Program-made: the position numbers and the translations under genes
Shown here: positions 5,843 to 37,135 of the stretch, piece after piece
Numbering within the stretch: the first letter of the stretch is position 1
How the letters are laid out: the number at the start of each line of letters is the position of its first letter
The notes under the pieces: model-generated
What the model saw: the letters and a program-made list of their open reading frames with translations, nothing else
What the model was told of the DNA's origin: nothing
Database searches by the model: none
Source of the DNA: Azolla caroliniana
Taxonomy: Eukaryota > Plantae > Polypodiophyta
DNA length: 64,000 nucleotides
Reading direction: 5' to 3'
Assembly: GCA_043228905.1 (NCBI GenBank)
Contig: JBHGNT010000013.1
Span: 19,654,001-19,718,000 of the forward strand

Positions 5843-6015
5843 AATACTACACAATAAGAAAATGTAGACAACAACCTCAACATCTTAGTAATGGACAGGC
5901 GAGATAATGAGAATTGCTTAGAAACCTTGATCCAAATCATCGAAAGAAAATGAATGGTAAGAATGAGCGGAAGTGAAGTGCTAAAAATAAATATACCAAT
6001 TTTCAAAGAGAGATC

Positions 6016-7772
6016 TGTTACCCGTATAGGTGTACGGGAGGGTTAGGTGTAATGTGGAAGGTGGTGTGTGATGTGTAATATGAAATGTGAATGTGTGAGA
6101 GTTAGGTGAGGTAAGTAGGTGTACCTACGTCCATTCGGCTTTTTGTAAAGATCTTCTATTATATAAATCCTCACTCATGGGGCATGAAAAGATGATATCG
6201 AAGTTGCTCTAAATTGTGTCTGTCTCGATTCTCACTCTCTCTCATTCGTTCGCTCTGTGGATCTCATCTCTCCCTCTCTCTCCTCACACTCAAACCCCCT
6301 TGGGAGGGGGGTGGAGCCGATCTTGGCTCCACCCCCCACCCATAAACACATGGCACGCCCTACGGCCTACCCCCCTTGAGTAGAAGTCTCTCTTTCCCTC
6401 TCTGTTCCCCTATGTGTCTCTAGGTCTTCATCTTTATGTTGTGTGTGTTTGTGCCACTCTATTGCTTGTATGCAGGAGGAGGAAGAAGCTGATTCAGAAA
6501 TTAATAAATTGCAAGAAACTAACAATCAAACACCTTCTAAATCACTCCATCAAGAGGTTCATGGCAGAGTTTGAAGGAAATGACAACAGTAGCCATAGCT
6601 AACCTATTCTGGAATAAAGTGGTGAAGTCACTTGTATATCTGGTTTAGTGCCAAGATCTGCCAATGATTCAAGTTTAGAGAAAAGAGGAATGCAAGTCAT
6701 GAGCAAGGAAGATAAAGCTGCATATGATCGATGTATAATGATGTATCAACAGAGTGCTTGTGCTTCATTAATGCTCTTCTTTGATTCTCATGAAGGGTTT
6801 GTGGTGGAACCGAATAGTGAGATCAAGTATTTAACCATTGTAGCAGAGTATATAGGTGATGTAGATTATATAAGCAAATGTAAAAGAGTAACAGAAATGA
6901 TAGAGTTAGCATTATAATGGGTTTACTCCTTACAAATTTTCTAGATAACGATTGGGTCATATGTCCTAATAAAAGAGGCCACATTGCTCTATTTGGATCA
7001 AGTATCATTAACCATGCACTAGAAGGGAAGAAGAAACAAAACCTAAGGTGTATAAGGTTCAATATTGAAGAGAAAACACATGCTTTGTTTATTTCCATCG
7101 ACAACAAGAGCCAAACGGACAAAGAGTCGGCTGGTGGATAAAGACGACCAACGCACTGAGTCAGCAGCCGGATGGCAGCAACTAGCCATGCAAATGGTTC
7201 GGCAACCAACTAGCCGATAGCCGAGATGGCCAAAGTCCTGCTAGAAAGACACAACCGAACCGAGAGCCGGCCGAACAGACGACCATGGCTAGCCGGTTGA
7301 GACCATCGGACAACGTCGGCATATAGCAACGGCCAAGTGATTTCCAACCATCGAGAGAAGACCGATGGAGTTTCCGGTCAACGAGTTTTTGGCATGGGCT
7401 TGTGGGTACGACGTGCAATGCAGTGTCCCACGGGTGTGCCATGTGTTACCCGTATAGGTATACGGGAGGGTTAGGTGTAATGTGGAAGGTGGTGTATGAG
7501 GTGTAATATGAAATGTGAATGTGTGAGTGTTAGGTGAGGTAAGTAGGTGTACCTACGTCCATTTGGCTTTTTGTAAAGATCTTCTATTATATAAATCCTC
7601 ACTCATGGGCCATGAAAAGATGATATCGAAGTTACTCTAAATTGTGTCTGCCTCCATTCTCTCTCTCTCATTCGTTCTCTCTGTGCATCTCATCTCTCCC
7701 TCTCTCCTCACACTCGAACACCCTTGGGAGGGGGGTGGAGCCGATCTTGGCTCCACCCCCCACCCATAAACA
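6016..7772 (+). mobile_element. Non-autonomous LTR element (TRIM/LARD-like, 1757 bp) with a captured gene fragment
   Basis: LTRs 6016-6348 and 7444-7772 (TGTT...AACA, ~95% identical by eye); TSD AGATC (6011-6015, 7773-7777); PBS-like TGGCACGCCC at 6351-6360; no gag or pol. Confidence 0.92.
6545..7105 (+). pseudogene. Decayed, intronless ATXR5/ATXR6-like SET-domain (H3K27 monomethyltransferase) fragment
   Basis: Motifs PRSAN..LEKRGMQVMSKED, FDSHEGFVVE, TIVAEYIGDVDY, VICPNKRGHIA, INHALEGKKKQNLRCIRFNI match the ATXR5/6 SET region; frameshift near 6900; terminal YYDYN motif absent. Confidence 0.85.
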
Positions 7773-9029
7773 AGATCTCTACCCAACCCACAGGGGTTAT
7801 CAAGAGTATTACCTCCAAGATTGAATTTGTCAGATCGATAAGATACACATTCCTTAATTTATCAACCACCACATAGGGGGGAAACATGCTTTAGACTCAT
7901 AATAGTTTTAGGGAGGCTAGATCACTCAAATAAACACAACTTATCAGTTGAACATCACTAGATTGCTTAATCCTACACAAGACAAAGAGAAAAGGCACAT
8001 TGGGATTGCAAAGACACTTAATTAAATTCAATCTTACTCTTCCCCAGGAAAATGGAAAGATCAATTGATAGTAAGTTCGTTTATAAAGTAGTTGTATTTT
8101 CCCATGACACCCTTAGACTTATGATCAATGGAAATCTTCAAGGGTTTTTCCTAGTAATTCCCAAAATGCCCTTCTATTTATGTCATATACTTATCCTAGA
8201 TTATCTTATCATATTTCTAGAACTAATTCACTTACTTAAGGCACAATCACTTATTAGATGATTAATAGTGTTCCAAAATAAAGGCCTTTGGGGATGCCAC
8301 ATCAACGTAGAGGAATGGGGAAGATATGAAGCATGGTTTAACGAAAATGTGATAAAACATACTATAAGGGAATGGATCTAGCGAGACCTAACATATAGCC
8401 GAGAGTAAGTGTTAAAAAGAGTTGTGTAGACCATCCACCTAGAGTAGGAGGGCATCCACCCATATTGAGAGGGAATCCACTCAAGAAATGAGGATCCACC
8501 CAAGGGTGAAGATAACCCAAAGAGAGAGGATATCTACTCAAAGGGACCATGTACTATGTATTAGAGATATGTACTAATGTAAGCAAAGGATAAGGATAAA
8601 TGATAGATCTAGATAGAGAGGAAAGAGAGAAAGAAGGGTGTTGATCCACCCGACCACCCCCGAGCGAAGGGATTGAGACGGACTCGAGCCTTGATCGGCG
8701 TCCCATACCACCGTCGTGGCGTCGAGTCGTACCTGGTGTTGGCGCGCTTGCTACAAGAGTTGAACACCCGAGAAACAGAGTCTCGACGTAGTCAAAAAGA
8801 TCATGAAATGAGTGTAGCTAGGCCTCTTATTTATAACAATACCCAAGGCCCCCATGCAAGTTCACACTTGGCCTAATGGGTTGTCTCAATCCCGAGGATT
8901 AAAAAGTAATCCTCCCCTTCTTTACACTCTCGTTTAACCCTCACCCTTATCCACGTGTATAGAATACTACGATAAATTCTCGCCACGGGATATTATATGG
9001 TCATGCCCGTAACATACTCCCCCTCTTTA

Positions 9030-13246: not shown

Positions 13247-14893
13247 CTTCCTCGTCTCTGTGTAACAGCTCTTTCTGCCGTTGTTGTCGCCGTTTATTGT
13301 CGTCCTCGTCGTCGTCGCCGTCGTCTGCAGCCGGTGTCTGTTGCCGACTGTTGCTGTCGTCGTCTGATGACTACCGTTGTCTGTTGTCGTCGCCGTCTGC
13401 TACTATCTGCAGCTAACGTCTGCCGTCGTTTGACGACTGCCACCGTCACCGTCGCCGTCGCGGGGTGTTTCTTCTCCATTTTCTCTTGACGTTGTGAAGT
13501 GCCATTTTCTTGACAAGTTCGTGGGTGGGTTCTTTTGGTGTGCTCGTCGTGTGCTACAAAATGCCGATGTGATTGCGACATACACACAAACTCGGCTAAG
13601 TCTCGAACCCATTTATTTTACCTTTTTTTCTTATTGACACCACAATGACGTCTAAACGAACTAAGGAACATAAGGATATACAAGACGAGGCTATAAGTAA
13701 GGAGCACTTTTTAGATATGTTTAATCGTTTAACAAAAATAGAGATGGATATGAAAAAATGGGTGAAAGACGCCGAAACCCACAAGAAAAAAGATAGAGAG
13801 GAAAAAGACGCCCTCAAGGCCGAAATAGAACAACTTAAAGTGGAAAACACCGACCTTAAAAAACAACTTAAGGACATCGAGGTATCTCGAGAAGACGGTG
13901 AAATATCCTCTATAGAGGATATAAAGGACGAAATTAAAAAAGTTAAAGAGGAAGTTAATAATAACATAGAGTTAGCTAAAACGGGTTGGGTAGATGTGGT
14001 TAAAAGAAACATTAAATAAGAAATAAAAGATGAAAATATTGTTAATACCACCCTTGAAGAAGAGAAAATGCGTCAGGCCCGACGCTTAAATGTACGTTGT
14101 CGTGAAGAAAACCGTTCATAGGCGGAATCGGCGCACCAAGGCGTGGGAACCGGTTCTTCACGCGCGCACGCTCCAAGTTGTACATAGAAGCGAATTAGGA
14201 GGATAATCGGCAGGAACGGGCCCTAACACAAGTGGAGACAAAGACCGCGCGAACAGTCTTTTCGGTCGCGCGCGCGAGCTAAGGAACTGTACGAGTCGGC
14301 GACGTAACTACGCGGGTGCGTGAAGAACGGAGCGGATCCCTGCTCGAAAGGGACAGGGAATAAAGCTGACATGACGGCCTGCTCGTCGGCCTATATAAGG
14401 AGCAGGAAAGAGCTGTTGCAGGGATCTGGCGCAGAGAGGACGAAGTGCTGTCGGACCGTTTCTGGACGCTTCTCTCTCTGTTTCCTTCCTTCTTGAGCTC
14501 GATAGCTTTTCTGTGCAGGGTTCCGAGGAGGCTCGCGCTGTTTCGAGGAACGCCCGAGTGCTTCCGGCAGCACCTCCGACCTGCTACCCCTTTGTGCGTC
14601 GAAGCGAACAGGCATCGGCATCTGTTCGCCGGCCTGTTCGGTTGTAGCCAACCTGTGCCCCATCGAGGGTTGTAGTCGTGTTAGCCATTTTGTTAATATA
14701 CATATTTAGTCATTCGCATCTGTCTGTGTCGGTGTCTGTTCGCGTTCTCCGTGCTGAAGGGCCGTGTCCCTGTGTATCCCCGGTCCTGCGTAGCCGGTTC
14801 TCTCTCTTTCTCCTCCCTCGCTTGCTCTTTGGTTCGAGACCCCCGCGGTCCCGCCTCGTTTCCACACGCACTTGCGTAATATCTCGACATCTT

Positions 14894-14910
14894 TGGTGAA
14901 CCCGACGTGA
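14894..14910 (+). promoter_or_regulatory. Primer-binding site complementary to tRNA-Trp
   Basis: TGGTGAACCCGACGTGA is the reverse complement of the plant tRNA-Trp 3' end (TCACGTCGGGTTCA-CCA); the same site is in copy 2 at ~34823-34839. Confidence 0.85.
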
Positions 14911-14933
14911 AGGAGGCGGCAGAAGAGCAGAAG

Positions 14934-17900
14934 ATGAGGGGGTCGGATCTTGCAGAGGCCATGGCTTCGGCCGTGGACCGGATTGTAAACGCGCACGAGG
15001 GCACCGGTGCCCTCGACAGAGCCATTGAGGCGGTCGTCGGCACGATCGGCCGGTTCGATGGGAAGGATGCCACGAAGTATTTGGCGTCCTACGGTCCAGA
15101 GATGCTGATGCGGGACATTCCGGAAGAAAGGCGTCTTGCCGGATTTCCCCGAGTGGCGATGCTGAGCATCCATGCGGAGGTGCTCGAGGTGCGGGCGGAG
15201 AGTCGTACCTGGGAGGAGTTCGAAGGTCGGCTCCTAGAGAAATACGGGCTGGACGACGCGCTCCGGCTTTCGAAGCGAAGGTTCATGGAATGGGTGGAGT
15301 CCCCGGGGAAGGGAAGAAACGCGTCGGCACTCCTCCGGGAGTTCGAGGAAAACTTTGCGCGCCTTTCGGCGCTCGACCGAACCATCCTGGACACGAGCCG
15401 GGTCTTGCTGTTTGTCAAGTCGGTCGACGAGCGGGATCGGGAGCAAGTGGGCCTCTTGCTGGAAACCGAAGACGGGCTCACTACCGACTGGGCGGCTGTC
15501 AAGAAAGTCTGTGGCCGTTTCGACAAACGGCGAGAATGGGCGGATAACGGGGCAACCGGGTCGGGCTCGGTCGCAGCAAGGGAGCTCGAACCAGCGCCAC
15601 AGGTGCGAAAGGAAGAGACCCGAGAATGGTTGGAAACCGGTTCGGCTTCAATCGGCGTAGTCAAAGGCTCAACCGGAGGAGCGGCGCTGGAGGAATTGAC
15701 GAGGGCGATAAAGGACCTCCAAATCGCGCAAGCCCGAAGGGAAGGTGGCGAACCGGCTCGTGACCGACGGCCGGCGGCAGGAAACAGGTGCATGTGGTGC
15801 GATGAAGTCGGCCACATTCGGAAGGACTGCGGCGACTTCGCGGAGGCGCTGAGGAACAGGGTGGTGTACCTGTGGGAAGGACGGGTGCATGCCAGCGACA
15901 CCCGAAGGGCCCTGAGCCGAAACGACGGGCGAGGTGGTATGAAAAGGTTGATGGAAGAGGCGGCGGCCCGACACGCGGAAACCGTCCACTACTCGGCGTC
16001 GGCCGGCATTCGAGTCGGGGGCGGCGAGGCCCGAAGGGAAAGCAAAGCCGGATTCTGGCCGACGATGCTGGAAGGCCTTGCCGGTGCAAGGCTTAAAAGG
16101 GAGGAATCGGACCGTGCGGAGAAACGGGTACGGGAGATGACCGGGTGGAGCGACCCGGTCGAGGAAAAGACGGGCTTCGTGGAAGCCGCTTGCCAGAACT
16201 ACGAGGCTCTGGTAGAAGAGAAGCGGGTGGGGAAACCCGGGACGACCGGGCCCTCACAACGATACGAGACCCGGTCCGGGCCACGACGGGACGAAACCGG
16301 CGGGGCCGGTACGCAAGATAAACCCCAGAAGGGCAGGTACCGTCTGGGGACGGAGATAGAAAGGACCACGGACTTACGAAAGGTCCTGGAGGAACGGATC
16401 CTCGACAGCAAGGTGGAGCTGTCGTTACAAGAGGTGCTGGGAATCGCCAAGAAGGAGTTCCACGACTCCATCGTGGACTTGGTAAAACGGAAGAGGCTGT
16501 CAACGGAGACAGAACTGGAAAGACCGGTGGAAGTGCGGACGACGCACCTAGACGACATGGCGCTGGGAGACGAGTGGGCGGAAAGCCACTATTCGAGACC
16601 ACACTGGGCCCGAGCGACCACGGAAACCCCGGTGAAGATCGGCGATGTCCAGGAACCGGTGATAGCTTTGGTGGACCACGGATCGGAGATCAATTTGATG
16701 TCCATGGACTTCTATAAGAAGGGCAGATGGCCGATCAACACCAAGCACGGGTGGAAAATAAGGGCAGCAATGCGCGCCACCGAGGAACTGCACGGGGCCT
16801 GTCCGAATGTGCAAGTCAAGATCGGCGACGTCGAGATTGACCAGCACTTCTTCGTGCAGGAGACGTCTTCGCATCCGGTCATACTGGGAGAGCCGTACAT
16901 CACGGCGGCGCGAATGGAGACCAAGGTGCTGGACAATGGTTCAGCCTACGCGAGGGTCAAAAGCCAAGACGGGCGCCATTCGGTCCAGTTTCTGACGGTA
17001 CGGCCGAACCACGAACGTAACCGCGACTCCCTGGAACCGAGGGGATTTTTAGAGAGGACTGCCAAGGCGTGGGGCCGCGACAGTCTGGATGCTCCGGGAA
17101 AACCCCACATCTGTACGATAAAACCGTGTACAATAGGTAGGAAATTTTGCTTCTCCGACAGCGGAGCATGTACGATGGTCGGCATCGCCGGCCGAGAGAA
17201 AACAAAGACGGAGGGGAGACTTCGAGCGTGCGGAGTTCTCGGCCCTGACGAAGAAATCAGTGGCACCGTGGAGGCGGTCTCCTTCGACGACACCTTGGGA
17301 ATGCTGGGGAAGGTAGTCGAAGAAGACCTTAACGAAGACCGGACGATACCGGTATGTTCCGAAGAAATGTACGAAGTCATCGCGGACTTTGGTCAGGGGC
17401 TCGAGTCGGATCGGACGGCCCGAGTAAGCACCAAGTACAAGACCGTGGACCGGAAGGTAAGGCCAGTCGCGGTACCGTTACCGGAGGGCAGCGAGTCGCG
17501 AATCAAAGGGGTTGCATCGGACCCCAGCTTACGAGATCCGGCCTGTATAGGACACACCTTCACCAACGAGACGCTCCGAGAGCTCAAAATCGGTGGGGGC
17601 GGGTTCCTACTACCGGCGGAGGAAGACCGGTTTCGGAGAATGCTCGGAAGGCACGGGAAAGCCTTCGCATTCTCACCGGAGGAAATCGGGTGCGTAGACC
17701 CGACGATCGTAGAGCCAATGGTGATATTCACGGTACCGCATGTACCGTGGAATCTCAAGCCAATTCCGGTTCCGAGAGCTCACATCCCGAAGTTGATGGA
17801 GTTGTTGAAGCAGAAAGTTGATATGGGCATTCTCGAGCCGTCGAGCGCCCCATATTCAAACCGATGGTTTACCGTACCAAAGAAAAACGGATCGTTGCGC

Positions 17901-20531
17901 TTCATTCAGGACCTGCAGCCGGTCAACAGAGTGACCATTCGGAACGCAGGGATCGGACCGACCATAGACGAGTTCGCGGAGGCCTTCGCCGGAAGGTCGA
18001 TTTTCTCGGTCGGTGATCTATACTCAGGGTACGACCAGTTCCAGCTAGCCGTGGAAAGCAGAGACATTATGACGATGCGAACTCCCCTCGGCCTAGTGCG
18101 GATGTGTACGCTGCCGCAAGGAGGGACCAACTCGGTGGCCCACATGGTGAATGCAATGAACAAGGTGCTGAGGGACTGCATCCCGGACATCACCATGCCG
18201 TTTCTAGACGACATCCCGATCAAGGGATGCCCGGTAGAAGAGAAGGACGAGACGATCAGGCCGGACGGATGCCGGCGATTCGTGATGACGCACATCGACG
18301 ACTGCGAGAAGGTGCTGCAAAGGCTAGAGGATGCGAGGCTCACCTTCTCGGGGGAGAAGTCAGCCTTCGGGCAGTCAGAAATCATGGTGGTCGGACATTT
18401 ATGTGGACCATATGGCCGGAAACCGTCTCCGGCAAAGGTAGAAGCCATCTCCGCGATGAAGCCTGATTGCAGCTCGGTCACGGAAGTACGAAGATTCTTG
18501 GGAGCATGCGCCTTCTACCACATATGGATCCCGCATTACGCGCACGTCGCGGAGCCGCTGTACGGATTATTGAAGAAAGGGCGAAGATTCGAATGGCTAG
18601 ACAAGCACACGGAGTCGGTCCGGAAGCTGAAGGAGGCTCTTTCGGCAGCACCGGCGCTCCGAAAGGCCGTCTACAGGAAGGGCACCCCAGTGTACATAAC
18701 GGTTGACACGAGTCCGACCGGAATCGGGTGGGTCGTCAACCAAGAAGACGAGGACGGCAATCGGTTCCCGATCCGATTCGGCGCGAAGGTCCTCAGTGAG
18801 CGGCAGCGAGGATACGCCCAGGTTAAACGCGAACTCTGGGGTATCGTTTCGGCGATGAAGGCCGACAAGGACTATCTGATCGGGACAGAGGTAATCATAG
18901 AGACGGATTGCATGCCGATTCTCGGCATGGTTTCCGGATGCGCGACGCCGGACCTGGCAATGCTCAGGTGGATAGCGTACATCAAGTCCCTGGACCCGGA
19001 AATACGACACATTTCCGGGAAAGACAACGCCATGGCCGACATGCTTTCAAGCGCGAGATTCGATGACGAGGGCGGCATGGTTTCGGAGGACGAAGAGGTC
19101 GGCGTGGACTTCTTCGAGGCAGCATACGTAACAACCGGCGGGACGAGCACTCCGGCGCTTAACGACTTTGACGCGAGCAAGTACGACGGGGAGTGGCTGC
19201 AGATCGGCGGGTTCTTGAGGACAATGGCGCCGGATGCGTCATGGACGAAAGACGAGGCCAACCGGATCCGGAAGAAAGCGTACCGGTTCTTTCTCCGGGA
19301 TGGCTATCTATGGAAGCACCCGAAGAAGAGGGACGGCGCTCCGCTCCGGGTGGTGGCGATGAAGGAAGAACAGGAGGAGCTGCTGACGGCCTACCACGAC
19401 AGCCCTTGGGCCGGACACCGTGGAACTTGGGCCACGTTCGAGAAGATAAAGGAGAAGTACTGGTGGCCGGGACTGTACCGGGACGTGCATCGATTAGTGA
19501 CAACTTGCGAGAGCTGTCAGATGCACTCCGTGGTCCGACACCGGGACGAGCTTCACCCTACGTACCCTCCGACCATCCACTTCAAATGGATGGTAGATCT
19601 GGTGACGATGCCAATGGGGGTAGGACAGATGCGGTACCTGGTCCTAGCGCGGGAGGATCTGACGAACCAGGTGGAAGGCCGGGCCCTTCCGAACAAAACG
19701 ACCGCGGCCGTATGTCGGTTCCTAATCGAGGACGTGATATGCCGGTACGGGTGCGTCGGGAAGATCGTGGCCGACCGAGGGGAGTTGGACGCCGAAGAAG
19801 CCGCGGAGCTGTTCGACCGGCTGGGAGTCAAGCTCTCGCTCACCACTGCGTACAATCCGGAGGCGAATGGAAAGGTGGAGCGCGGACACGGACCGATCGT
19901 CAAGGCGTTGGTTCGAGCATGCGGAGGCCAAGTCGGTAACTGGCCGCGGCTGCTACCTTATGCTTTGTGGGCAGACCGGACCACGCACAGTTCGGTAACC
20001 GGGTACATGCCGACGGAGCTCATGTTCGGCCAGAAGCCGATCATGCCGATGGAACGGACGATCTCCTCGTGGGCAACGGTCGACTGGAGGGACGAGATGA
20101 GCCGGGAGGAGTTGTTGGCCGCGCGTATACGACAGCTCGAGCGGAGACCGGAGGACGTGGAGCTGGCTGCGGAGAAGCTCCGGGTGGCGAGGACAAAGAA
20201 CAAAGCCAGGTTCGACCGAACGCACCGGCTCCGACCGAAGAAAATCGACGAAGGTGACTGGGTGCTCGTCTACGACAGCAGCCTCGACAACCAGCACCGA
20301 GCTACACGGAAGTTCGCACGAAGGTGGTTCGGGCCTTACGTGGTACGGAGCGCCAATGACAACGGGACATATCACCTGGCGGAACTAGACGGCACGAGAA
20401 TGGCGATACCGGTTGCAGGGAAGCGGATCAAAGCGTTCAAGAAGCGACACGACGACGAGCCAGACCCGGCTCTCCTAGTCAGCAGTGACGAACGATCCGA
20501 AAACGAGGAAGAACCAACGGGCGAGGAATGA
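14934..20531 (+). CDS. Gag-PR-RT-RNase H-integrase polyprotein (one frame in this copy)
   Basis: CCHC CMWCDEVGHIRKDC; protease LVDHGSEIN; RT DLYSGYDQF, LPQG, FLDD; RNase H VDTS; integrase HHCC, DDE and GPY; no chromodomain. First ATG at 14934; the track starts at GTG 14907. Confidence 0.92.
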   Translation: MRGSDLAEAMASAVDRIVNAHEGTGALDRAIEAVVGTIGRFDGKDATKYLASYGPEMLMRDIPEERRLAGFPRVAMLSIHAEVLEVRAESRTWEEFEGRLLEKYGLDDALRLSKRRFMEWVESPGKGRNASALLREFEENFARLSALDRTILDTSRVLLFVKSVDERDREQVGLLLETEDGLTTDWAAVKKVCGRFDKRREWADNGATGSGSVAARELEPAPQVRKEETREWLETGSASIGVVKGSTGGAALEELTRAIKDLQIAQARREGGEPARDRRPAAGNRCMWCDEVGHIRKDCGDFAEALRNRVVYLWEGRVHASDTRRALSRNDGRGGMKRLMEEAAARHAETVHYSASAGIRVGGGEARRESKAGFWPTMLEGLAGARLKREESDRAEKRVREMTGWSDPVEEKTGFVEAACQNYEALVEEKRVGKPGTTGPSQRYETRSGPRRDETGGAGTQDKPQKGRYRLGTEIERTTDLRKVLEERILDSKVELSLQEVLGIAKKEFHDSIVDLVKRKRLSTETELERPVEVRTTHLDDMALGDEWAESHYSRPHWARATTETPVKIGDVQEPVIALVDHGSEINLMSMDFYKKGRWPINTKHGWKIRAAMRATEELHGACPNVQVKIGDVEIDQHFFVQETSSHPVILGEPYITAARMETKVLDNGSAYARVKSQDGRHSVQFLTVRPNHERNRDSLEPRGFLERTAKAWGRDSLDAPGKPHICTIKPCTIGRKFCFSDSGACTMVGIAGREKTKTEGRLRACGVLGPDEEISGTVEAVSFDDTLGMLGKVVEEDLNEDRTIPVCSEEMYEVIADFGQGLESDRTARVSTKYKTVDRKVRPVAVPLPEGSESRIKGVASDPSLRDPACIGHTFTNETLRELKIGGGGFLLPAEEDRFRRMLGRHGKAFAFSPEEIGCVDPTIVEPMVIFTVPHVPWNLKPIPVPRAHIPKLMELLKQKVDMGILEPSSAPYSNRWFTVPKKNGSLRFIQDLQPVNRVTIRNAGIGPTIDEFAEAFAGRSIFSVGDLYSGYDQFQLAVESRDIMTMRTPLGLVRMCTLPQGGTNSVAHMVNAMNKVLRDCIPDITMPFLDDIPIKGCPVEEKDETIRPDGCRRFVMTHIDDCEKVLQRLEDARLTFSGEKSAFGQSEIMVVGHLCGPYGRKPSPAKVEAISAMKPDCSSVTEVRRFLGACAFYHIWIPHYAHVAEPLYGLLKKGRRFEWLDKHTESVRKLKEALSAAPALRKAVYRKGTPVYITVDTSPTGIGWVVNQEDEDGNRFPIRFGAKVLSERQRGYAQVKRELWGIVSAMKADKDYLIGTEVIIETDCMPILGMVSGCATPDLAMLRWIAYIKSLDPEIRHISGKDNAMADMLSSARFDDEGGMVSEDEEVGVDFFEAAYVTTGGTSTPALNDFDASKYDGEWLQIGGFLRTMAPDASWTKDEANRIRKKAYRFFLRDGYLWKHPKKRDGAPLRVVAMKEEQEELLTAYHDSPWAGHRGTWATFEKIKEKYWWPGLYRDVHRLVTTCESCQMHSVVRHRDELHPTYPPTIHFKWMVDLVTMPMGVGQMRYLVLAREDLTNQVEGRALPNKTTAAVCRFLIEDVICRYGCVGKIVADRGELDAEEAAELFDRLGVKLSLTTAYNPEANGKVERGHGPIVKALVRACGGQVGNWPRLLPYALWADRTTHSSVTGYMPTELMFGQKPIMPMERTISSWATVDWRDEMSREELLAARIRQLERRPEDVELAAEKLRVARTKNKARFDRTHRLRPKKIDEGDWVLVYDSSLDNQHRATRKFARRWFGPYVVRSANDNGTYHLAELDGTRMAIPVAGKRIKAFKKRHDDEPDPALLVSSDERSENEEEPTGEE

Positions 20532-21764
20532 AGACGGGCCGGTTTTCTCCGTCCCAACTCTCTTGGCGCATACCGGAGGATGCGCGGTTAGGTGGGGGCG
20601 GATGTCGTGAAGAAAACCGTCCATAGGCGGAATCGGCGCACCAAGGCGTGGGAACCGGTTCTTCACGCGCGCACGCTCCAAGTTGTACATAGAAGCGAAT
20701 TAGGAGGATAATCGGCAGGAACGGGCCCTAACACAAGTGGAGACAAAGACCGCGCGAACAGTCTTTTCGGTCGCGCGCGCGAGCTAAGGAACTGTACGAG
20801 TCGGCGACGTAACTACGCGGGTGCGTGAAGAACGGAGCGGATCCCTGCTCGAAAGGGACAGGGAATAAAGCTGACATGACGGCCTGCTCGTCGGCCTATA
20901 TAAGGAGCAGGAAAGAGCTGTTGCAGGGATCTGGCGCAGAGAGGACGAAGTGCTGTCGGACCGTTTCTGGACGCTTCTCTCTCTGTTTCCTTCCTTCTTG
21001 AGCTCGATAGCTTTTCTGTGCAGGGTTCCGAGGAGGCTCGCGCTGTTTCGAGGAACGCCCGAGTGCTTCCGGCAGCACCTCCGACCTGCTACCCCTTTGT
21101 GCGTCGAAGCGAACAGGCATCGGCATCTGTTCGCCGGCCTGTTCGGTTGTAGCCAACCTGTGCCCCATCGAGGGTTGTAGTCGTGTTAGCCATTTTGTTA
21201 ATATACATATTTAGTCATTCGCATCTGTCTGTGTCGGTGTCTGTTCGCGTTCTCCGTGCTGAAGGGCCGTGTCCCTGTGTATCCCCGGTCCTGCGTAGCC
21301 GGTTCTCTCTCTTTCTCCTCCCTCGCTTGCTCTTTGGTTCGAGACCCCCGCGGTCCCGCCTCGTTTCCACACGCACTTGCGTAATATCTCGACAACGTGT
21401 CACTGGGCTCAAGGAAGGTGCATCCCCAAATGAGGATGCACAAACACTTGGGAAAATGTTAGGGTACACAGAGGCCCTACCTATCACCAAAGCATGGAGG
21501 GCCGGGCATGACACAACTAGGAAGAGAGCCTTAGTCCTTCAATTTAAAGACTTAGACTCTAGAATCACTTTCTTTAAGAAGAGACCAATCCTTCGAGGAA
21601 TGGGTGGGGACCCCATCTATCTCGATGAAGACCTCACTAAGATGCAAATTGAGCATCGCAAGAGTTGTATGCCACGAGTTATGCAAGCTCGTAAAGAAGG
21701 CCATCGCGCCTTTTACCGAGACGGGTGAGTGATCATAAATGATCGCACTACTAATTGACAGTGT

Positions 21765-24700
21765 GTGGCTCATGTGACAGAAAATGCACTTAGGATGACC
21801 TTATGGAATTGTAACGGCGCACTCTGGGCACACCCCGGCCGCCTAGAGGAGATACTAAAGGTATCTGATATACTTTTCTTGGTAGAAACACATCAGAGCC
21901 CAAATAGAGGACTCCCACGGGTCGAAGGACTCCGTTGGGAGTCCGCTTTTAGACAAACCTCACGTCGACACACTACTGGGGGATCTTGAGGTGTCGCGAT
22001 ACTGTTTCATAGAGAGCTACATAATAGGATAGAAATAATGAAGATAGACCCAGAAGCTCGTTTTATGTGGGTGAAAGTCTCCACAAGCAAAGACCAAGCA
22101 GTATTTTTCGCCATTTGTTACTTTCCCCCAAAAGGATCCCGTTATAATATTGGTGGCTTGGCGAGATTAGTTGATGAAGGAATGCCACATGGGCCTTCCC
22201 CATACGAACCCCTATCGGATGACATAATCCGATATTCTTCCCAAGGAGAAGTATTTCTTGTAGGAGACTTCAATGCGAGAACCCAATCCTGACAATGCAC
22301 AGTATTTCAGATGAATAGAAACCTAGAAATGGTAAATGTCGATCCTTTAGACATAGGCACCACACGTAGATCAAAGGATCAAGGTGCGGACACCACGAGC
22401 TTTGGCCATCATCTGTTCGAACTTGGCAGTCGGCACCGGATGGTCATATATAATGGTTTAGCTAAGTGGCCGGGCTCGGAAGAGCTCACATGTTTCCCAC
22501 ATGGAGGAGGGGAAAGCACAGTTGATTATCTAATAGGACGCCCTGAAGCTACCCACATGATTAACTCCTTCCGAGTGGCCCCATGCCCTATTGGCGCAGA
22601 CTATAGTTTCTTATACTTCGAGCTAAAATGTGATATCACTAATGTCACCAAGTCTGGTCAACCATGCCATCACACCACAATACATTTCACACATGAGCTC
22701 TCTGACATATACTCTCAACATGTTCAGGCCCATCTCCCCTCCCTTGATCCCTCCCTACCGTTAGAAAGCCTTAGTACGAAACTCACACACATCCTTCACT
22801 CCGCAGCAGCTAGCAATTTCCCATATACAAAACACTCAAATCAAGGTAGATCAGGATCAATGCCACAAAATAAATGGTATGATGAGGATTGTAGGGACTT
22901 ACATAGACAACTTACAGTATCGCAACTTAATGGTAGTATTACCTCCATACAAGCTCGCAAAGAAATGCGCAAGATGACACGTCGTAAGAGACGAGCGTGG
23001 GAGGCATCCCAATATTGGGAACTCTACCATATGCTCATGAGTGGCGATTGCGCCACGGCATGGAAGAGACTACAGGAGCCAAGACCACAAACACCCATCG
23101 AAGATCCCGAAACTTGGCACACATATACAGAGAGACTTTACCAAATCCCAAACCAACCACCCATTCCAATGCCTTCCACACCCCGGCCTACCACGGGGAC
23201 ACTTTTCACGACCTCTAGGGTCGTGAAGGTCATAAAGAAATTACAACATAGGAAGTCCATGGACCACACTGGATTGCGAGCAGAACACATTATATATGCG
23301 AGAGAGTACCTAGCTCCCTTGCTAACTCTAATCTTCAATCGTGCCCTTGCGGAGGGTTTTCCACCACAATGGACTATGAATACAGTGGCCCCCATACATA
23401 AAGGGGGGGACCCCATGGACCCAAATACATATAGGACCATTATGATAGGCCATACCCTTGCTAAGTTATATGGTGCAGTAATGGAAGCAGAGCTTAGCGA
23501 CTATATGGAGACCCTAAACCTTCGTGCACCTGAACAAGCTGGCTTTAGATGAGCCTTCTCCACTATTGATCATATCTTCACACTTAGATGCCTAATTGAC
23601 CAAACTAAGGCTCTCAAGAAGAAATTATATTGTTGTTTTGTGGACTTCCGCAAAGCCTTTGACACAGTCCCTAGAGAGCGGTTGTTTGATAGACTTAAAA
23701 GCTTGAGGATACCAAATGATATGGTATGGGCCATCTACGCACTATATGAACAAGTGTTCGGGTGTGTCCGATGCCTGGTGGCCTAGGTGTAAAACAAGGT
23801 TGCCCCCTATCACCGACACTTTTTGGGATCTACATTGATGAGATCATAGATTTTATTGCTCGTGAGGGAGGCACCGGAGTGGTCCTTGGGGATACGCAAG
23901 TTCGTATCTTCCTCTATGTGGATGACATAGTTTTGCTCTCTGAATCCGAACACGACCTACAAAGGCACCTTAATACCTTAGATGACTTTTGTGTACAACG
24001 AGGATTGGTAGTGAATCTAGGGAAAACGAAAGTCCTTATCTTCCACACATCGGCCCAAGTTAGAGTTAAGTGTCACCTAACTATCTCCCATAGCCCAGTT
24101 GAGGTGGTTGAATCATACGTCTATCTCGGAGTCACTTTTAGTGCCCGCTCAGGTAAATTTTCGATGACACGGGCAACAAAGGATAGACTCACGAGAGGAC
24201 ATGCATCCCTCTCACTCCTAGAGAGACAATGCCACCAAGCACACTTTCAAGAGCCAGGGACTAAAGGGTGGCTCTTTGACTCATTAGTGACCCCCTCCCT
24301 CATGTATGCATCAGTGGTTTGGGCTCCGGGACCATCTTTCATGTGGACGCAATTAGAGAGACCATTGGTGATGATGCTATCATGCCAACTCCGAAGCAAA
24401 TCGATTGTACCACATGACATTATTAGGGCTGAGTTCACGTTACCCCCAATGTTAGTAGAGGCACTTTTTCAACTTGTAGTCTTCATTCACAGGATACATA
24501 GCCAACCACATGATAGAATATCTCATCAAGCCTTTAAGGCCTCTCGATCATTGTATGAGTCCGGCTATACTAGCTCATGGTATGGCATGATGGTGAGTTG
24601 GCTTCTTGAGAATGGTCTAGACATTAATAACCTACCTCCCCTTAGGTACAACCACACGAGTGATAACACTTTAATCTCTCATGAGGACCGCAATAAAGTA

Positions 24701-25480
24701 ATACGCCAAGAAATATTGCAAATTTACACTCGGTGTAAATGGATCACCCCACTAGAGCCACTCCCATCTAAAATGTCGTACTATAAGAAACACTTCATGC
24801 ACTTCTCTGAGTTAGGTTTTATCACACGGCCAAAATATCTACATGTATTCTTACCACATGCACTAAGGGTTGCCATTGGACAACTTAGAATATCATCTCA
24901 CCAACTTGAGATTGAGAATGGCCGTACTAGTGGAGTCCCTAGGGAGGAAAGGATATGTAGGTTATGTCACATAGAGATAGAGGATGAGTACCACTTTACA
25001 TGCAAGTGGCCAACCTATGCCGAGATAAGGGCAAAATACCAAGACATACTTGGTTCTTCTCCCACCCTCCCCAAACTATTAGATACTCTAGATATAAAGA
25101 AATTAGGCAAATACATTCTAGAGCTAAAACAACACAGAGAGAATAAGTTACAAAATGTTGACAATAATGTTGCTAATGATCACGAACATGTAACAAATGA
25201 AGTTTTTCAGGAACAAGGGGAGACAACGAATGTCGACACACTTGCACCACTCGGCCTTTCCATTGATGAGGCAGAAAACCAGAGAAGAACCAGACGTCCT
25301 CGGGTGCTGGGTTTCAAAGCAACTCGACGTGATGTGGAAGCAATATTGAAAATAAGGGAACGTGAGCTACACCGCCTAGAAGCCATGGCTAGGGCACTCT
25401 CTACATTGGAACCATGGGTCACACCCACATCAAGACCCTTTGACCCCCCACTTCTTTTCGAGAGGCTTGGGTGGAAATAA
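21765..25480 (+). pseudogene. LINE ORF2 (AP endonuclease, RT, C-terminal CCHC), copy A
   Basis: WNCNG, VETH, GDFNA, STVDY; EQAGFR, DFRKAFD, KQGCPLSP, YVDD, YLG; ERICRLC...HF; stops at 21987, 22290 and 23550, and a frameshift at ~23775. Confidence 0.9.
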
Positions 25481-26198
25481 AATTAGGCTTAGTGTATGTC
25501 ACTTTCGAGTATACTATGTATTGTACACTACTAGACTCTTTTAGTTTAAGTTCTATTTTTTACTTAATTTTATTTTAGTTATGATGACTGCATAAATACT
25601 CTTTTGTTGTAAACCAATTGTCTCATGGGCCAAATTTGGCCTTAGAAGACGTTAATATATCTTTCTTTCTTTCTTTCTTTCTATTATAGAACCAGGTGTC
25701 ATGGCAAGACTCGAACCCATGACTTTATGCTACATGGGTCGAGCTCTTACCATTAGATTAGGAATTGTATTTTGTAGGATATTATCTTCATTTATACTTT
25801 ATCATAGAAAATTGATGTATATTCCAGATCTCTCTGGAACATTCTAGAAGCTTCAAGATTATTCCTAAAAACACTATAAAAGGAGGCACAAGGCATTGTT
25901 TTGAACCAAATTGGTTCAACGCCAGTCTTAAGCCTCCTAGCCGCTTGTACTTATCTTTTCACATAATATATAGCTGCTGTCATCATCTCTCTCATTCTCG
26001 CTATCTCTCTCTCTCTCTCCTCTTCTCACTTCCTCTCTCGGGAATCTTACGCAATCCCGTCCTCTTAGTACTAATAGTACTGCTGTTCTTAGTACTAATT
26101 CCATCTCTGTTTTAGTACTATTCCTGACAGTTTGAACCAATTTCCACCTCTAGCCTACTTGTCACTCTCCCTCATCCTCCTACCCTTTTCCCTATACT

Positions 26199-27356
26199 AT
26201 GGCTACTGTTAGCGCCCAAGAATACCAATCCGTTTTCTCCGAGCTACAGTGCCTAAAAGAAAAGTTTGTTGCCCTGGAACAAGAAAACCAACGGCTGATA
26301 GGGGATCTGCAACAAATCGCTCTAGAAAAACAACAAACGCAACAACAACATGGGGAGTTAGCGTTACGGGTACAACAACTCGAAGCAGCGTTGCAACAAC
26401 AAGGATCCAGTCCCCAAGGATTTCATAAAGAGCCCAAGATTGGACTTCCTGTGAAATTTGATGGAACGCGTTCGCAATTCCGGGGATTCCTTAATCAGGT
26501 ACGCTTAGTCATCCAAATGCATCCTTCCCGATATCCCACTGATGCATCTCGAGTCGGCCTAATAGGCACGCTACTTAGCGGCTCAACCTTGGCATGGTTT
26601 GCTCCGCTTCTAGAAAAACAATCACCCTTACTTAATAACTTTGAAGATTTTATTGGTGAGTTTAAAGCCTGCTTTGGAGACACCGACAGCATCAGGACGG
26701 CGATCAACAAGATCCGGCGATTGCGTCAAGGCGATCGTCCAGCCTCTGCCTACGCGGCGGATTTCCGCCTACTTGCTTCAGATATACCCTGGGATGATCA
26801 AGCACTAATGGAGCAGTTTCGCTATGGCTTGCGAAACGATGTCAAAGATCTACTTCTAACTTTCCCCGAAGAACCAAAGTCTCTTACGGAGGCAATCAGT
26901 CGAGCAGTTCGATGTGACAACCGCCTTTTTGAACGGCGTTCAGAACGTCAATTACAGATACCACGCTCTAGGCCAGAGCCCACTTACGCCGCAGTCGCGG
27001 CTAAACCGTTTGCACGAGACACACCTCAAGCAAATACTTCGACACCGATGGAGATCGATACCATGCGTCGACGCGGCCCGTTATCGGAAGAAGAAAAGCA
27101 ACGACGACGTGCCAATCGATTATGTCTTTATTGCGGTGGACCAGGACATATCGCCATCAATTGTCCCCATAGGCCAAGAAGACAGGTAAATCAAATCGTC
27201 GCCTGTACTAAACCCGAGTCAATTCTTCCCTTTGGAGTGTCTGATAGTATTAATAGTACTAATAGAGTGTCAGATAGTATTCATAGTACTAATAGCCCAA
27301 GTATCTCAAATAAATTTGAAATCCTTAGTCAATTAGATGAAGAGTTAAACGATTGA
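26199..27356 (+). CDS. Gag (sushi/Tcn1/PEG10-like) with CCHC knuckle
   Basis: Coiled-coil N-terminus, PVKFDGTR..FRGFLNQ, LRQG..SAYAADF, PMEID, CLYCGGPGHIAINC. Confidence 0.9.
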   Translation: MATVSAQEYQSVFSELQCLKEKFVALEQENQRLIGDLQQIALEKQQTQQQHGELALRVQQLEAALQQQGSSPQGFHKEPKIGLPVKFDGTRSQFRGFLNQVRLVIQMHPSRYPTDASRVGLIGTLLSGSTLAWFAPLLEKQSPLLNNFEDFIGEFKACFGDTDSIRTAINKIRRLRQGDRPASAYAADFRLLASDIPWDDQALMEQFRYGLRNDVKDLLLTFPEEPKSLTEAISRAVRCDNRLFERRSERQLQIPRSRPEPTYAAVAAKPFARDTPQANTSTPMEIDTMRRRGPLSEEEKQRRRANRLCLYCGGPGHIAINCPHRPRRQVNQIVACTKPESILPFGVSDSINSTNRVSDSIHSTNSPSISNKFEILSQLDEELND

Positions 27357-28796
27357 GTCCAGCCAAAATAGGAGCCATTTGGTTGGACAGCAGCCCTAGA
27401 TCTGTACAGCCCATTAGTGGTTCCATTCCTTCCAAGCAAGTTAGCAATGTGTTCCTAGCCCAAGTCATTGTTAGTACTAAAAGTACTCCCCCAGTACCCG
27501 TCCTAGCACTTTTAGATTCCGGAGCTAATTCCTGTTTCATGGATCGAAATTTTGCCCAAGCTTCTCAGATATCCTTAAGAAAACTTCCTTGTCCCGCATC
27601 TGTAGTGGTCATTGATGGTCGTCCCATTGCTTCCGGGAATATTGTAGAAGAATCAGAACCCATTCAAGTTGTCCTAGGTAGTTTTGTGTGTATAATATCA
27701 TTTAATATAATTAGTAGTCCAGAGCATCCCATTGTCCTAGGATTACCTTGGCTTGAATTACATAATCCAGCCATAGATTGGAGAACAAGAGAAGTCCGAT
27801 ATCGACCACCCCAAGAATCAACTCACCGAGTTTCGACCATTTCACTCCATCAACTACGCGAAGAAGGACCCAAGGAGGCAATGTTCCTATTTGCCATATC
27901 AGTACATCCTTCTAGCACTATTAAGAAGGACTCCTCAATACAACTTCCGGCAAAATATCATCCTTATGCCGATGTATTTGACAAGGTAAAAGCCGGTACC
28001 CTTCCTCATCACCGTCCCTATGACTGTCCCATCGATTTACAACCAGGAACCGAGCCACCATGGGGACCAATTTACAACTTGTCACCCACCGAGTTAGAAG
28101 TCCTTCGAGCCTACATAGAGGAGAACTTGGCAAGCGGGTTCATCCGTCATTCGAAATCTTCGGCCGGCGCACCCATCTTCTTTGTCAAGAAGAAAGATGG
28201 CTCACTTCGTCTTGTCGTTGATTACCGCGGATTGAATAAAGTCACCATCCGGAATAGGTATGCACTTCCTCTTATATCAAGTCTTTTAGAGCGAGTTAAT
28301 GGTGCCAAGTTTTTTACTAAAATCGACCTACGAGGAGCGTATAATCTCGTGCGGATCCGACCGGGAGATGAGTGGAAGACCGCTTTTCGCACGCGGTATG
28401 GGCATTTCGAGTATACTGTTATGCCGTTTGGCCTAACCAATGCACCCGCAGTCTTCCAACACATGGCAAATGATATATTCAGAGACCTCTTGGATATCTG
28501 TTTGATCATTTATCTGGATGATCTGTTGATTTATTCGAAGACCCAGGAAGAGCACGATTCTCATGTACTATTAGTACTAAAGCGACTCCGCGAGAATGGT
28601 CTTTATGCCAAGCTAGAGAAATGTAGCTTTGACTGCAAGCAAGTGGAATTTCTAGGCTACGTCATCTCCTCAAAGGGCATCGCCATGGATCCAGCTAAAA
28701 TCCAAACTGTACTAGAGTGGCAAATTCCACAGTCGGTACGAGATGTACAATGTTTTCTAGGCTTTGCTAACTTCTACCGTAAGTTTATACAGGATT
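27344..28796 (+). CDS. Pol (protease, RT; truncated by the gap) in the -1 frame relative to gag
   Basis: [54 protein letters not shown]. Confidence 0.88.
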
Positions 28797-28896
28797 NNNN
28801 NNNNNNNNNNNNNNNNNNNNNNNNNNNNNNNNNNNNNNNNNNNNNNNNNNNNNNNNNNNNNNNNNNNNNNNNNNNNNNNNNNNNNNNNNNNNNNNN
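28797..28896. other. Assembly gap (100 N)
   Basis: Run of 100 n. Confidence 1.
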
Positions 28897-30751
28897 AAAC
28901 CTAGAAATGGTAAATGTCGATCCTTTAGACATAGGCACCACACGTAGATCAAAGGATCAAGGTGCGGACACCACGAGCTTTGGCCATCATCTGTTCGAAC
29001 TTGGCAGTCGGCACCGGATGGTCATATATAATGGTTTAGCTAAGTGGCCGGGCTCGGAAGAGCTCACATGTTTCCCACATGGAGGAGGGGAAAGCACAGT
29101 TGATTATCTAATAGGACGCCCTGAAGCTACCCACATGATTAACTCCTTCCGAGTGGCCCCATGCCCTATTGGCGCAGACTATAGTTTCTTATACTTCGAG
29201 CTAAAATGTGATATCACTAATGTCACCAAGTCTGGTCAACCATGCCATCACACCACAATACATTTCACACATGAGCTCTCTGACATATACTCTCAACATG
29301 TTCAGGCCCATCTCCCCTCCCTTGATCCCTCCCTACCGTTAGAAAGCCTTAGTACGAAACTCACACACATCCTTCACTCCGCAGCAGCTAGCAATTTCCC
29401 ATATACAAAACACTCAAATCAAGGTAGATCAGGATCAATGCCACAAAATAAATGGTATGATGAGGATTGTAGGGACTTACATAGACAACTTACAGTATCG
29501 CAACTTAATGGTAGTATTACCTCCATACAAGCTCGCAAAGAAATGCGCAAGATGACACGTCGTAAGAGACGAGCGTGGGAGGCATCCCAATATTGGGAAC
29601 TCTACCATATGCTCATGAGTGGCGATTGCGCCACGGCATGGAAGAGACTACAGGAGCCAAGACCACAAACACCCATCGAAGATCCCGAAACTTGGCACAC
29701 ATATACAGAGAGACTTTACCAAATCCCAAACCAACCACCCATTCCAATGCCTTCCACACCCCGGCCTACCACGGGGACACTTTTCACGACCTCTAGGGTC
29801 GTGAAGGTCATAAAGAAATTACAACATAGGAAGTCCATGGACCACACTGGATTGCGAGCAGAACACATTATATATGCGAGAGAGTACCTAGCTCCCTTGC
29901 TAACTCTAATCTTCAATCGTGCCCTTGCGGAGGGTTTTCCACCACAATGGACTATGAATACAGTGGCCCCCATACATAAAGGGGGGGACCCCATGGACCC
30001 AAATACATATAGGACCATTATGATAGGCCATACCCTTGCTAAGTTATATGGTGCAGTAATGGAAGCAGAGCTTAGCGACTATATGGAGACCCTAAACCTT
30101 CGTGCACCTGAACAAGCTGGCTTTAGATGAGCCTTCTCCACTATTGATCATATCTTCACACTTAGATGCCTAATTGACCAAACTAAGGCTCTCAAGAAGA
30201 AATTATATTGTTGTTTTGTGGACTTCCGCAAAGCCTTTGACACAGTCCCTAGAGAGCGGTTGTTTGATAGACTTAAAAGCTTGAGGATACCAAATGATAT
30301 GGTATGGGCCATCTACGCACTATATGAACAAGTGTTCGGGTGTGTCCGATGCCCAGGTGACCTATCTAATAAACAAGGTTGCCCCCTATCACCGACACTT
30401 TTTGGGATCTACATTGATGAGATCATAGATTTTATTGCTCGTGAGGGAGGCACCGGAGTGGTCCTTGGGGATACGCAAGTTCGTATCTTCCTCTATGCGG
30501 ATGACATAGTTTTGCTCTCTGAATCCGAACACGACCTACAAAGGCACCTTAATACCTTAGATGACTTTTGTGTACAACGAGGATTGGTAGTGAATCTAGG
30601 GAAAACGAAAGTCCTTATCTTCCACACATCGGCCCAAGTTAGAGCTAAGTGTCACCTAACTATCTCCCATAGCCCAGTTGAGGTGGTTGGATCATACGTC
30701 TATCTCGGAGTCACTTTTAGTGCCCGCTCAGGTAAATTTTCGATGACACGG

Positions 30752-35622: not shown

Positions 35623-37135
35623 ACGGGCAACAAAGGATAGACTCACGAGAGGACATGCATCCCTCTCACTCCTAGAGAGACAATGCCACCAAGCACACTT
35701 TCAAGAGCCACGGACTAAAGGGTGGCTCTTTGACTCATTAGTGACCCCCTCCCTCATGTATGCATCAGTGGTTTGGGCTCCGGGACCATCTTTCATGTGG
35801 ACGCAATTAGAGAGACCATTGGTGATGATGCTATCACGCCAACTCCGAAGCAAATCGACTGTACCACATGACATTATTAGGGTTGAGTTCACGTTACCCC
35901 CAATGTTAGTAGAGGCACTTTTTCATCTTGTAGTCTTCATTCACAGGATACATAGCCAACCACATGATAGAATATCTCATCAAGCCTTTAAGGCCTCTCA
36001 ATCATTGTATGAGTCCGGCTATACTAGCTCATGGTATGGCATGATGGTGAGTTGGCTTCTTGCGAATGGTCTAGACATTAATAACCTACCTCCCCTTAGG
36101 TACAACCACACGAGTGATAACACTTTAATCTCTCATAAGGACCGCAATAAAGTAATACGCCAAGAAATATTGCAAATTTACACTCGGTGTAAATGGATCA
36201 CCCCACTAGAGCCACTCCCATCTAAAATGCCGTACTATAAGAAACACTTCATGCACTTCTCTGAGTTAGGTTTTATCACACGGCCAAAATATCTACATGT
36301 ATTCTTACCACATGCACTAAGGGTTGCCATTGGACAACTTAGAATATCATCTCACCAACTTGAGATTGAGAATGGCCGTACTAGTGGAGTCCCTAGGGAG
36401 GAAAGGATATGTAGGTTATGTCACATAGAGATAGAGGATGAGTACCACTTTACATGCAAGTGTCCAACCTATGCCGAGATAAGGGCAAAATACCAAGACA
36501 TACTTGGTTCGTCTCCCACCCTCCCCAAACTATTAGATACTCTAGATATAAAGAAATTAGGCAAATACATTCTAGAGCTAAAACAACACAGAGAGAATAA
36601 GTTACAAAATGTTGACAATAATGTTGCTAATGATCACGAACATGTAACAAATGAAGTTTTTCAGGAACAGGGGGAGACAACGAATGTCGACACACTTGCA
36701 CCACTCGGCCTTTCCATTGATGAGGCAGAAAACCAGAGAAGAACCAGACGTCCTCGGGTGCTGGGTTTCAAAGCAACTCGACGTGATGTGGAAGCAATAT
36801 TGAAAATAAGGGAACGTGAGCTACACCGCCTAGAAGCCATGGCTAGGGCACTCTCTACATTGGAACCATGGGACACACCCACATCAAGACCCTTTGACCC
36901 CCCACTTCTTTTCGAGAGGCTTGGGTGGAAATAAAATTAGGCTTAGTGTATGTCACTTTCGAGTATACTATGTATTGTACACTACTAGACTCTTTTAGTT
37001 TAAGTTCTATTTTTTACTTAATTTTATTTTAGTTATGATGACTGGATAAATACTCTTTTGTTGTAAACCAATTGTCTCATGGGCCAAATTTGGCCTTAGA
37101 AGACGTTAATATATCTTTCTTTCTTTCTTTCTTTC

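Follow-up and report, generated by a model that had tools for sequence, protein, structure and literature searches.

A tRNA-Arg 3'-end copy in place of the polypurine tract in a fern LTR retroelement

Plus-strand synthesis from a polypurine tract (PPT) that resists RNase H is treated as general for both retroviruses and retrotransposons with long terminal repeats (LTRs). We describe here an element that is arranged differently, at positions 6016-7772 of a 64,000-nucleotide stretch of the fern Azolla caroliniana (GenBank assembly GCA_043228905.1, contig JBHGNT010000013.1, positions 19,654,001 to 19,718,000 of the forward strand; this whole stretch is called the window below). In the standard scheme, as set out in the available passages on yeast Ty3 (PMC5371799) and HIV-1 (PMC2665208), the left LTR end is determined by where the primer of the plus strand has its 3' end, and a correct end is needed for integration. 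With the elements of those passages, the window element shares the LTRs, the 5-bp target-site duplication (TSD), a primer-binding site (PBS) two bases after the 5' LTR and a conserved signal just before U3. In place of a purine tract, however, that signal is a sense copy of a tRNA 3' end into which a hairpin is inserted.

Further tRNA-related sites are known from several LTR elements, and none of those compared here has this arrangement. The bipartite PBSs of Ty3 and Drosophila gypsy (PMC5371799, PMC1635307) and the Ty1 boxes and CYC5/CYC3 (PMC7969010) are, in the sections available, complementary to the tRNA on the RNA strand; the second sites of Ty3, gypsy and Ty1 help minus-strand priming and coexist with a PPT. 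The 3' site of the window element, on the other hand, carries the tRNA sense on the RNA and, if the plus strand is the genomic one, would bind a tRNA only on minus-strand DNA. The Helenus TRIMs (miniature retrotransposons with terminal repeats; Kojima 2024, PMC10886601) are likewise non-autonomous LTR elements with tRNA-derived sequence; in the parts of that account available, the tRNA-derived part sits within their LTR, where it serves as a Pol III promoter, they retain both PBS and PPT, and the length is below 1 kb. We rejected a placement among the TRIMs, since the window element is 1757 bp long, has no PPT and carries its tRNA-derived piece outside the LTR. Plant non-chromovirus Ty3/gypsy elements of the OTA superclade (Neumann et al. 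2019, PMC6317226) have tRNA-Arg among their primers and a 5-bp TSD, and the passages available describe no loss of the PPT in OTA lineages; tRNA-Arg priming is consistent with such an affiliation for the window element, which holds no coding domain for placement. The PBS 10-mers are absent from the text supplements of that paper (five files, which may not include the large element tables), and a literature search by sequence terms returned neither a plant tRNA nor an element. Nor did we find a tRNA 3'-end copy in place of a PPT described in the literature covered, which left subscription journals and some supplements outside.

No PPT abuts the 3' LTR (7444-7772, TG...CA, a direct repeat of 6016-6348). 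Purines make up 45% of the last 20 nt before it, in runs of at most 3, as against 65-70% and runs of 5-12 in the five other LTR elements of the window, which served as controls and have G-rich tracts touching the LTR. The nearest run of at least 7 purines lies 80-82 nt from the 3' LTR in four of four sequences; in the window it is a 9-nt run at 7353-7361, 82 nt before the LTR, which is the nearest PPT-like tract and is too far away to set the LTR end. Where the PPT belongs stands instead, at 7400-7441, a copy of the last 30 nt of a tRNA-Arg, with a 13-nt hairpin inserted and one base missing. Its first segment (7400-7411) holds the 5' strand of the T stem and the first five T-loop bases. The insert follows at 7412-7424, 18 tRNA bases from the 3' end, with 7413-7416 pairing to 7420-7423. 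The second and third segments (7425-7441) hold the 3' T-stem strand minus one base, the acceptor strand and the CCA, and read on the minus strand as an inverted PBS. A 2-nt spacer (7442-7443; TG in the window, GG in the copies fetched from elsewhere) separates the CCA from the LTR, mirroring the CA spacer at the left end, where spacer and 10-nt PBS occupy 6349-6360. There the PBS reads TGGCACGCCC at 6351-6360, directly after the CA, and is complementary to the tRNA-Arg 3' end; the geometry of the two sites is thus CA-NN-TGG at the PBS and CCA-NN-TG at the 3' site. A preliminary description of the locus had given these coordinates and letters and had pointed out the missing purine tract and the tRNA-Arg-like T arm and acceptor end; on recheck all of this agrees, and as an observation on the sequence the tRNA-Arg 3'-end copy in the place of the PPT is confirmed.

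The assignment to tRNA-Arg comes from a search with the site pattern without its 13-nt insert, which matched two loci in the GTDB collection, both called by ARAGORN as tRNA-Arg genes (TCT and TCG). Against the TCT gene (L009, bacterial and not the host's), the fetched copy L001 is identical at 29 of the last 30 bases and the window copy at 27, figures that arise partly by construction, the comparison tRNA having been found with a site-derived pattern. L001 has 13 nt inserted 18 bases from the 3' end and lacks one base 11 bases from it; the window copy shows two differences beyond these. The window holds one match to the split tRNA pattern and none of 100 shuffles holds any, which shows rarity only, because the site itself had served to define the pattern. 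Of the 10-mer TGGCACRCCC there are two occurrences in the window, one on each strand, at both inner LTR-side ends, compared with a mean of 0.15 in shuffles, two of 100 of which reach two matches with position not counted. ARAGORN and Rfam did not call the fragment 7400-7441 as a tRNA and gave no tRNA match in the LTRs either. That the PBS matches the tRNA for 10 nt only, as described earlier, holds. A PBS of such length is nothing exceptional, that of Drosophila gypsy having 11 nt (PMC1635307).

A metagenome scan with the 5' junction pattern returned eight loci, of which five are copies of the family (L001, L002, L003, L005 and L006) and three (L004, L007, L008) were dropped as chance matches with no similarity to the element. 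Since the 3' site was not in the search pattern, its comparison is a fair test. The split tRNA end, followed by GG and then by the LTR, is present in all three fetched contigs that contain an internal-to-LTR junction (L001, L002, L006), while in L003 the LTR is preceded by unrelated flank and the L005 contig begins at the LTR. All five spacer matches in those three contigs are GG (one is a repeated contig end), and at the start of L006 the final 17 bases of the tRNA-like end, followed by GG, stand ahead of another LTR that is unrelated. A normal PPT, for which the preliminary description had proposed to look in other copies as the sign of a one-off event, was found in none of these three. Its second refuting result, a site that fits no tRNA 3' end of the host, was not obtained either, the tRNA compared being bacterial. 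As side observations, L002 and L006 have a tandem LTR-internal-LTR-internal layout, for which template-switch arrays or assembly collapse are possible, and in L006 a family-type internal region is headed by the unrelated LTR, itself preceded by the tRNA-like end.

The site is also found in contigs from public sequencing runs of four organisms, 479, 171, 163 and 5 of which aligned to 7365-7470 (4 of 21 listed runs were covered, and whole-element alignment likewise covered 4 runs); these contigs may lie in either orientation, and some may be ordinary PBSs read from the opposite strand. Several span internal sequence, site and LTR start. In one run (X1), the summed depth is 21,600-27,200 over 7425-7452 and about 1,000 at 7465-7468, summed contig depths not being taken here as copy numbers; most contigs thus leave the window LTR after its first bases, and other LTR families therefore share the site. 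At 7408 the tRNA-type T accounts for 64-97% of the depth in the four runs. No variants are listed at 7402-7407 and 7437-7447, which we do not read as invariance, as differences near alignment ends go unlisted. Within the insert, the shares of G7415>A and C7421>T amount to 18/18, 27/30 and 44/45% for three of the runs and to 0.6/2.7% in the fourth, and G7413>A has a lower share, 3-12%, in the same three; the matched shares at 7415 and 7421 fit a compensatory pair, which would keep the insert hairpin paired. In the tRNA-derived stem no two-sided change was seen in the contigs of the four organisms or the aligned copies, and a pair count, made on five aligned sequences, too few for a test of covariation, with the tRNA row partly misaligned, gave none. 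Three scans of a viral contig collection gave no match. Taken at the level of sequence, the conservation of the 3' site across families and related species is real.

Which strand is genomic is suggested by captured host genes. According to the available parts of PMC13317346, plant LTR elements capture genes by template switching between co-packaged RNAs, and the Veju TRIMs, like the window family, hold different host gene fragments between the same LTRs; gene capture in the window family is thus ordinary and serves as an orientation marker. Such capture should place mRNA pieces in the sense of the genomic RNA. The window copy contains, at 6621-7087, a decayed piece of the SET region of ATXR5/6, an H3K27 methyltransferase, in two frames and sense on the plus strand (PDB 5va6/4o30, E 2e-21 and 1e-12). 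L005 retains the fragment as an open 171-aa frame (327-839 of the contig, minus strand), 56% identical to a Riccia protein, and contigs from three organisms cover it, as captured and amplified by the family. Alignment to the full protein ends at residue 369 of 387; the SET C-terminus is therefore missing, and the fragment is likely not catalytic. ATXR5/6 is an H3K27 monomethyltransferase and a heterochromatin enzyme, and the element-borne piece could, speculatively, act on the host gene via small RNAs. In the second copy of L002 the cargo is a 5' fragment of HSP70 (94-453 of the contig, minus strand; sense on the plus strand of the element; Pfam E 9e-27) that directly follows the family leader, and three other cargo frames, in L001, L003 and L006, gave no match. 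By these fragments, the family swaps cargo between the same LTRs. Because the ATXR5/6 and HSP70 pieces are both sense on the plus strand, we take plus as the genomic strand.

The mirrored geometry, in which CCA stands two bases from TG just as CA stands two bases from TGG, makes it quite probable that the plus-strand primer ends at the CCA at 7441. For the primer itself, we favour a second host tRNA-Arg that anneals to minus-strand DNA at the 3' site and primes the plus strand, a reading to which we give an even chance. In such a scheme, a tRNA-Arg would first prime the minus strand in the standard way at the 10-nt PBS, which is seen in the sequence 2 nt after the 5' LTR, using the enzymes of an autonomous partner. 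Second, the minus-strand DNA copy of 7400-7441, once the RNA is removed, is predicted to offer 10 + 7 + 12 bases complementary to the last 30 of the tRNA, where one base of the tRNA forms a bulge and the 13-nt hairpin is looped out. Third, extension from the CCA would copy the 2-nt spacer and then U3, so that each end of the cDNA would carry two extra bases for integrase. Finally, on the genomic RNA, 7400-7441 is predicted to fold on itself, partly hiding the tail that could otherwise block the PBS. Bulge and hairpin would split the hybrid into short pieces and might, as speculation, shield the tRNA from RNase H. We favour a tRNA supplied in trans because the T-loop bases and both T-stem strands are retained and a two-sided change is seen in the insert only. 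Of the three mechanisms offered in the preliminary description, tRNA on both strands thus fits best, the segment as plus-strand primer is the main rival, and the self-priming panhandle is unlikely. Its interpretation is partly supported, and it had not noticed that the insert forms a hairpin which is conserved, that the copies share the missing base or that captured gene fragments indicate orientation.

A number of points weigh against this reading. First of all, priming of both strands by tRNA is deduced from sequence. Cofolding of the stand-in tRNA with the minus-strand site does predict the three-part duplex, in favour of a tRNA in trans, at net -24 to -35 kcal/mol in L001, L002 and L006 and -16 in the window copy, but the tRNA used is bacterial and the parameters are those of RNA-RNA pairing, whereas the hybrid would be RNA-DNA. 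In HIV-1, RNA primers other than the PPT are destroyed on DNA by RNase H and NC (available passages of PMC2665208), and a tRNA on DNA would therefore need protection, which is only supposed here. Second, neither gag nor pol was seen in the window copy or the five fetched loci, so that orientation rests on cargo in three copies and two genes. L001 hardly differs from the first copy in L002, and the contigs are possibly collapsed; there are therefore about three independent junctions beside that of the window. Third, the shares at 7415 and 7421 are unphased, not being read from single molecules, and decay, too, most commonly produces G>A and C>T. Finally, the missing tRNA base is common to all four full copies and, together with the upstream pyrimidines, leaves a continuous plus-RNA helix with three added C-G or U-G pairs, which on modelling would suit a role as RNA structure at least as well.

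This last point bears on the main rival, which we regard as possible but clearly less probable, namely that the primer is the element's own RNA. The tRNA-like hairpin would survive RNase H and be cut after the CCA, and its folded arm with a 10-nt hybrid would look to reverse transcriptase like a tRNA on the 10-nt PBS. The geometry is that of a tRNA in trans, the tail after the hairpin is exactly the 10 nt of the PBS, and the missing base and upstream pyrimidines lengthen the plus-RNA helix. In three of three copies the 7400-7441 segment also folds more stably when read as plus RNA, with z -1.8 to -2.3 against -0.1 to -1.1 for the complement, which can be read in favour of the element's own RNA or as hiding the tail from the PBS. 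Such priming would retain the standard logic, in which the primer comes from genomic RNA (available part of PMC5371799). It has, however, no need of the T-loop bases, yet the tRNA-type T at 7408 is kept to the extent given above; the tRNA-derived stem is without any two-sided change; and a primer fully paired to fresh minus DNA must re-fold out of that pairing.

Two further explanations are improbable, and we rank them equally. In one, the orientation is reversed or both strands are genomic, so that on the minus strand 7441-7425 would be a long PBS of the ordinary kind with an additional box, and the plus strand would be primed in the region of the 10-nt site and the G-rich run behind it. The minus-strand site does match 17 of 18 tRNA bases and 12 more, like the extended primer sites of Ty1 (passages of PMC7969010), and on that strand the left LTR is preceded, at a distance of about 17 nt, by a G-rich run of purines. 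The recognisable cargo is nevertheless sense on the plus strand, and the reversed element would still be without a PPT: the 20 nt before its LTR again finish as a copy of a tRNA 3' end and contain no purine run longer than 4. In the other, the 3' segment is a regulatory anti-PBS or cyclization element like CYC3 of Ty1, and the plus strand starts at another RNase H-resistant piece such as 7353-7361, a purine run kept in four of four sequences. The 16-bp panhandle between 6345-6360 and 7432-7447, claimed in the preliminary description, is indeed predicted, in the minimum-energy as well as the centroid fold of the 1.5-kb transcript. Of the 16 pairs, however, four are supplied by the LTR's own ends, and copies with the GG spacer lose one further pair. 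Cyclization would need only the last 10 nt, not the T arm, and leaves the fixed 2-nt distance unexplained. A primer 80 nt upstream would give the wrong LTR end, where a correct one is needed for integration (PMC2665208, as far as available).

Still less likely is the panhandle as a self-primer, in which RNA cut after the CCA at 7441 would prime the minus strand from its tail on the PBS instead of a tRNA. The tail does pair with exactly 10 PBS bases (net -8 to -11 kcal/mol), but the predicted binding of the stand-in tRNA to the PBS is no weaker (net -13), and the cut would sever U3-R, which is needed for strand transfer, and leave the plus strand without a primer. Self-priming of the Tf1/Tcn1 type was rejected as well, as the PBS 10-mer has no exact match on either strand inside the LTRs, the transcript start being unmapped. 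A one-off reverse-transcription accident in the window copy, which is decayed and has minority letters at 7408, 7423 and 7435, is refuted by the same end in L001, L002, L006 and the contigs of four organisms, and its chance is negligible.

The rest of the element is that of a small LTR retrotransposon. It has direct LTRs (TG...CA), a TSD within 4-6 bp and a PBS just after the 5' LTR, and from these features and its cargo it is classed as a non-autonomous, gene-capturing LTR retroelement of 1757 bp, flanked on both sides by the 5-bp duplication AGATC (6011-6015 and 7773-7777). The two LTRs differ by 13 mismatches in 329 aligned bases. The 5' LTR (6016-6348, plus strand) contains a TATA-like run at 6160-6168, whose role is suggested by its letters only, followed by a CT-rich stretch, and ends in a long GC-rich hairpin in the putative U5 (6301-6342; -39.7 kcal/mol, z -6.0, none of 200 shuffles equally stable) that is kept in L001, L002, L003 and L006, L005 being without the 5' arm. 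The CA spacer is found in seven of seven junctions (the window and six in fetched loci, the 10-mer itself having been part of the search pattern), as are the first nine bases of a C-rich conserved stretch 3' of the PBS (6361-6380). This stretch could pair with the G-rich arm of the hairpin as an alternative fold, and in a cofold with the stand-in tRNA it is predicted to make a second helix. The flank of L003 carries a 209-aa frame (element strand, 270-896), which we take to resemble the end of a Penelope-type reverse transcriptase.

The window around it consists of plant DNA in which LTR elements abound. For its NOG1 gene, the best named homologs among 120 listed are those of the ferns Adiantum and Ceratopteris (83-86% identity); seed plants, mosses and a lycophyte follow at 72-77%, in keeping with a fern host. 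A GC-rich Ty3/gypsy family at 14098-21394, 30752-35622 and 41093-43029 has a 1883-aa open frame with DUF4100 in the gag region, an inverted copy and a short relative, an ordinary G-rich PPT, and a PBS unlike that of the window element and presumably tRNA-Trp-like. Its element at 30752-35622 interrupts a duplicated Ty3/gypsy stretch at 22319-37150 with an N gap just before 28897, and this duplication may include assembly duplication.

Since a non-coding family keeps the 3' site, we regard it as a cis signal of replication. A tRNA 3' end in the place of the PPT goes against the general rule of LTR replication, although the mechanism is deduced. It is an evenly balanced proposition that a fern LTR lineage gave up its PPT and primes both strands with host tRNA-Arg, that a three-part DNA site shields the tRNA from RNase H, and that non-autonomous, gene-capturing families keep the signal. 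If this is true, annotation tools that orient elements by PBS and PPT would misread them, and the 3' site would be a short, defined substrate on which to ask how reverse transcriptase distinguishes a primer from RNA that is to be destroyed. A natural high-copy lineage primed by a tRNA or a tRNA-shaped RNA would mean that the general PPT rule is replaceable, and both strands of such elements would be open to control by tRNA fragments.
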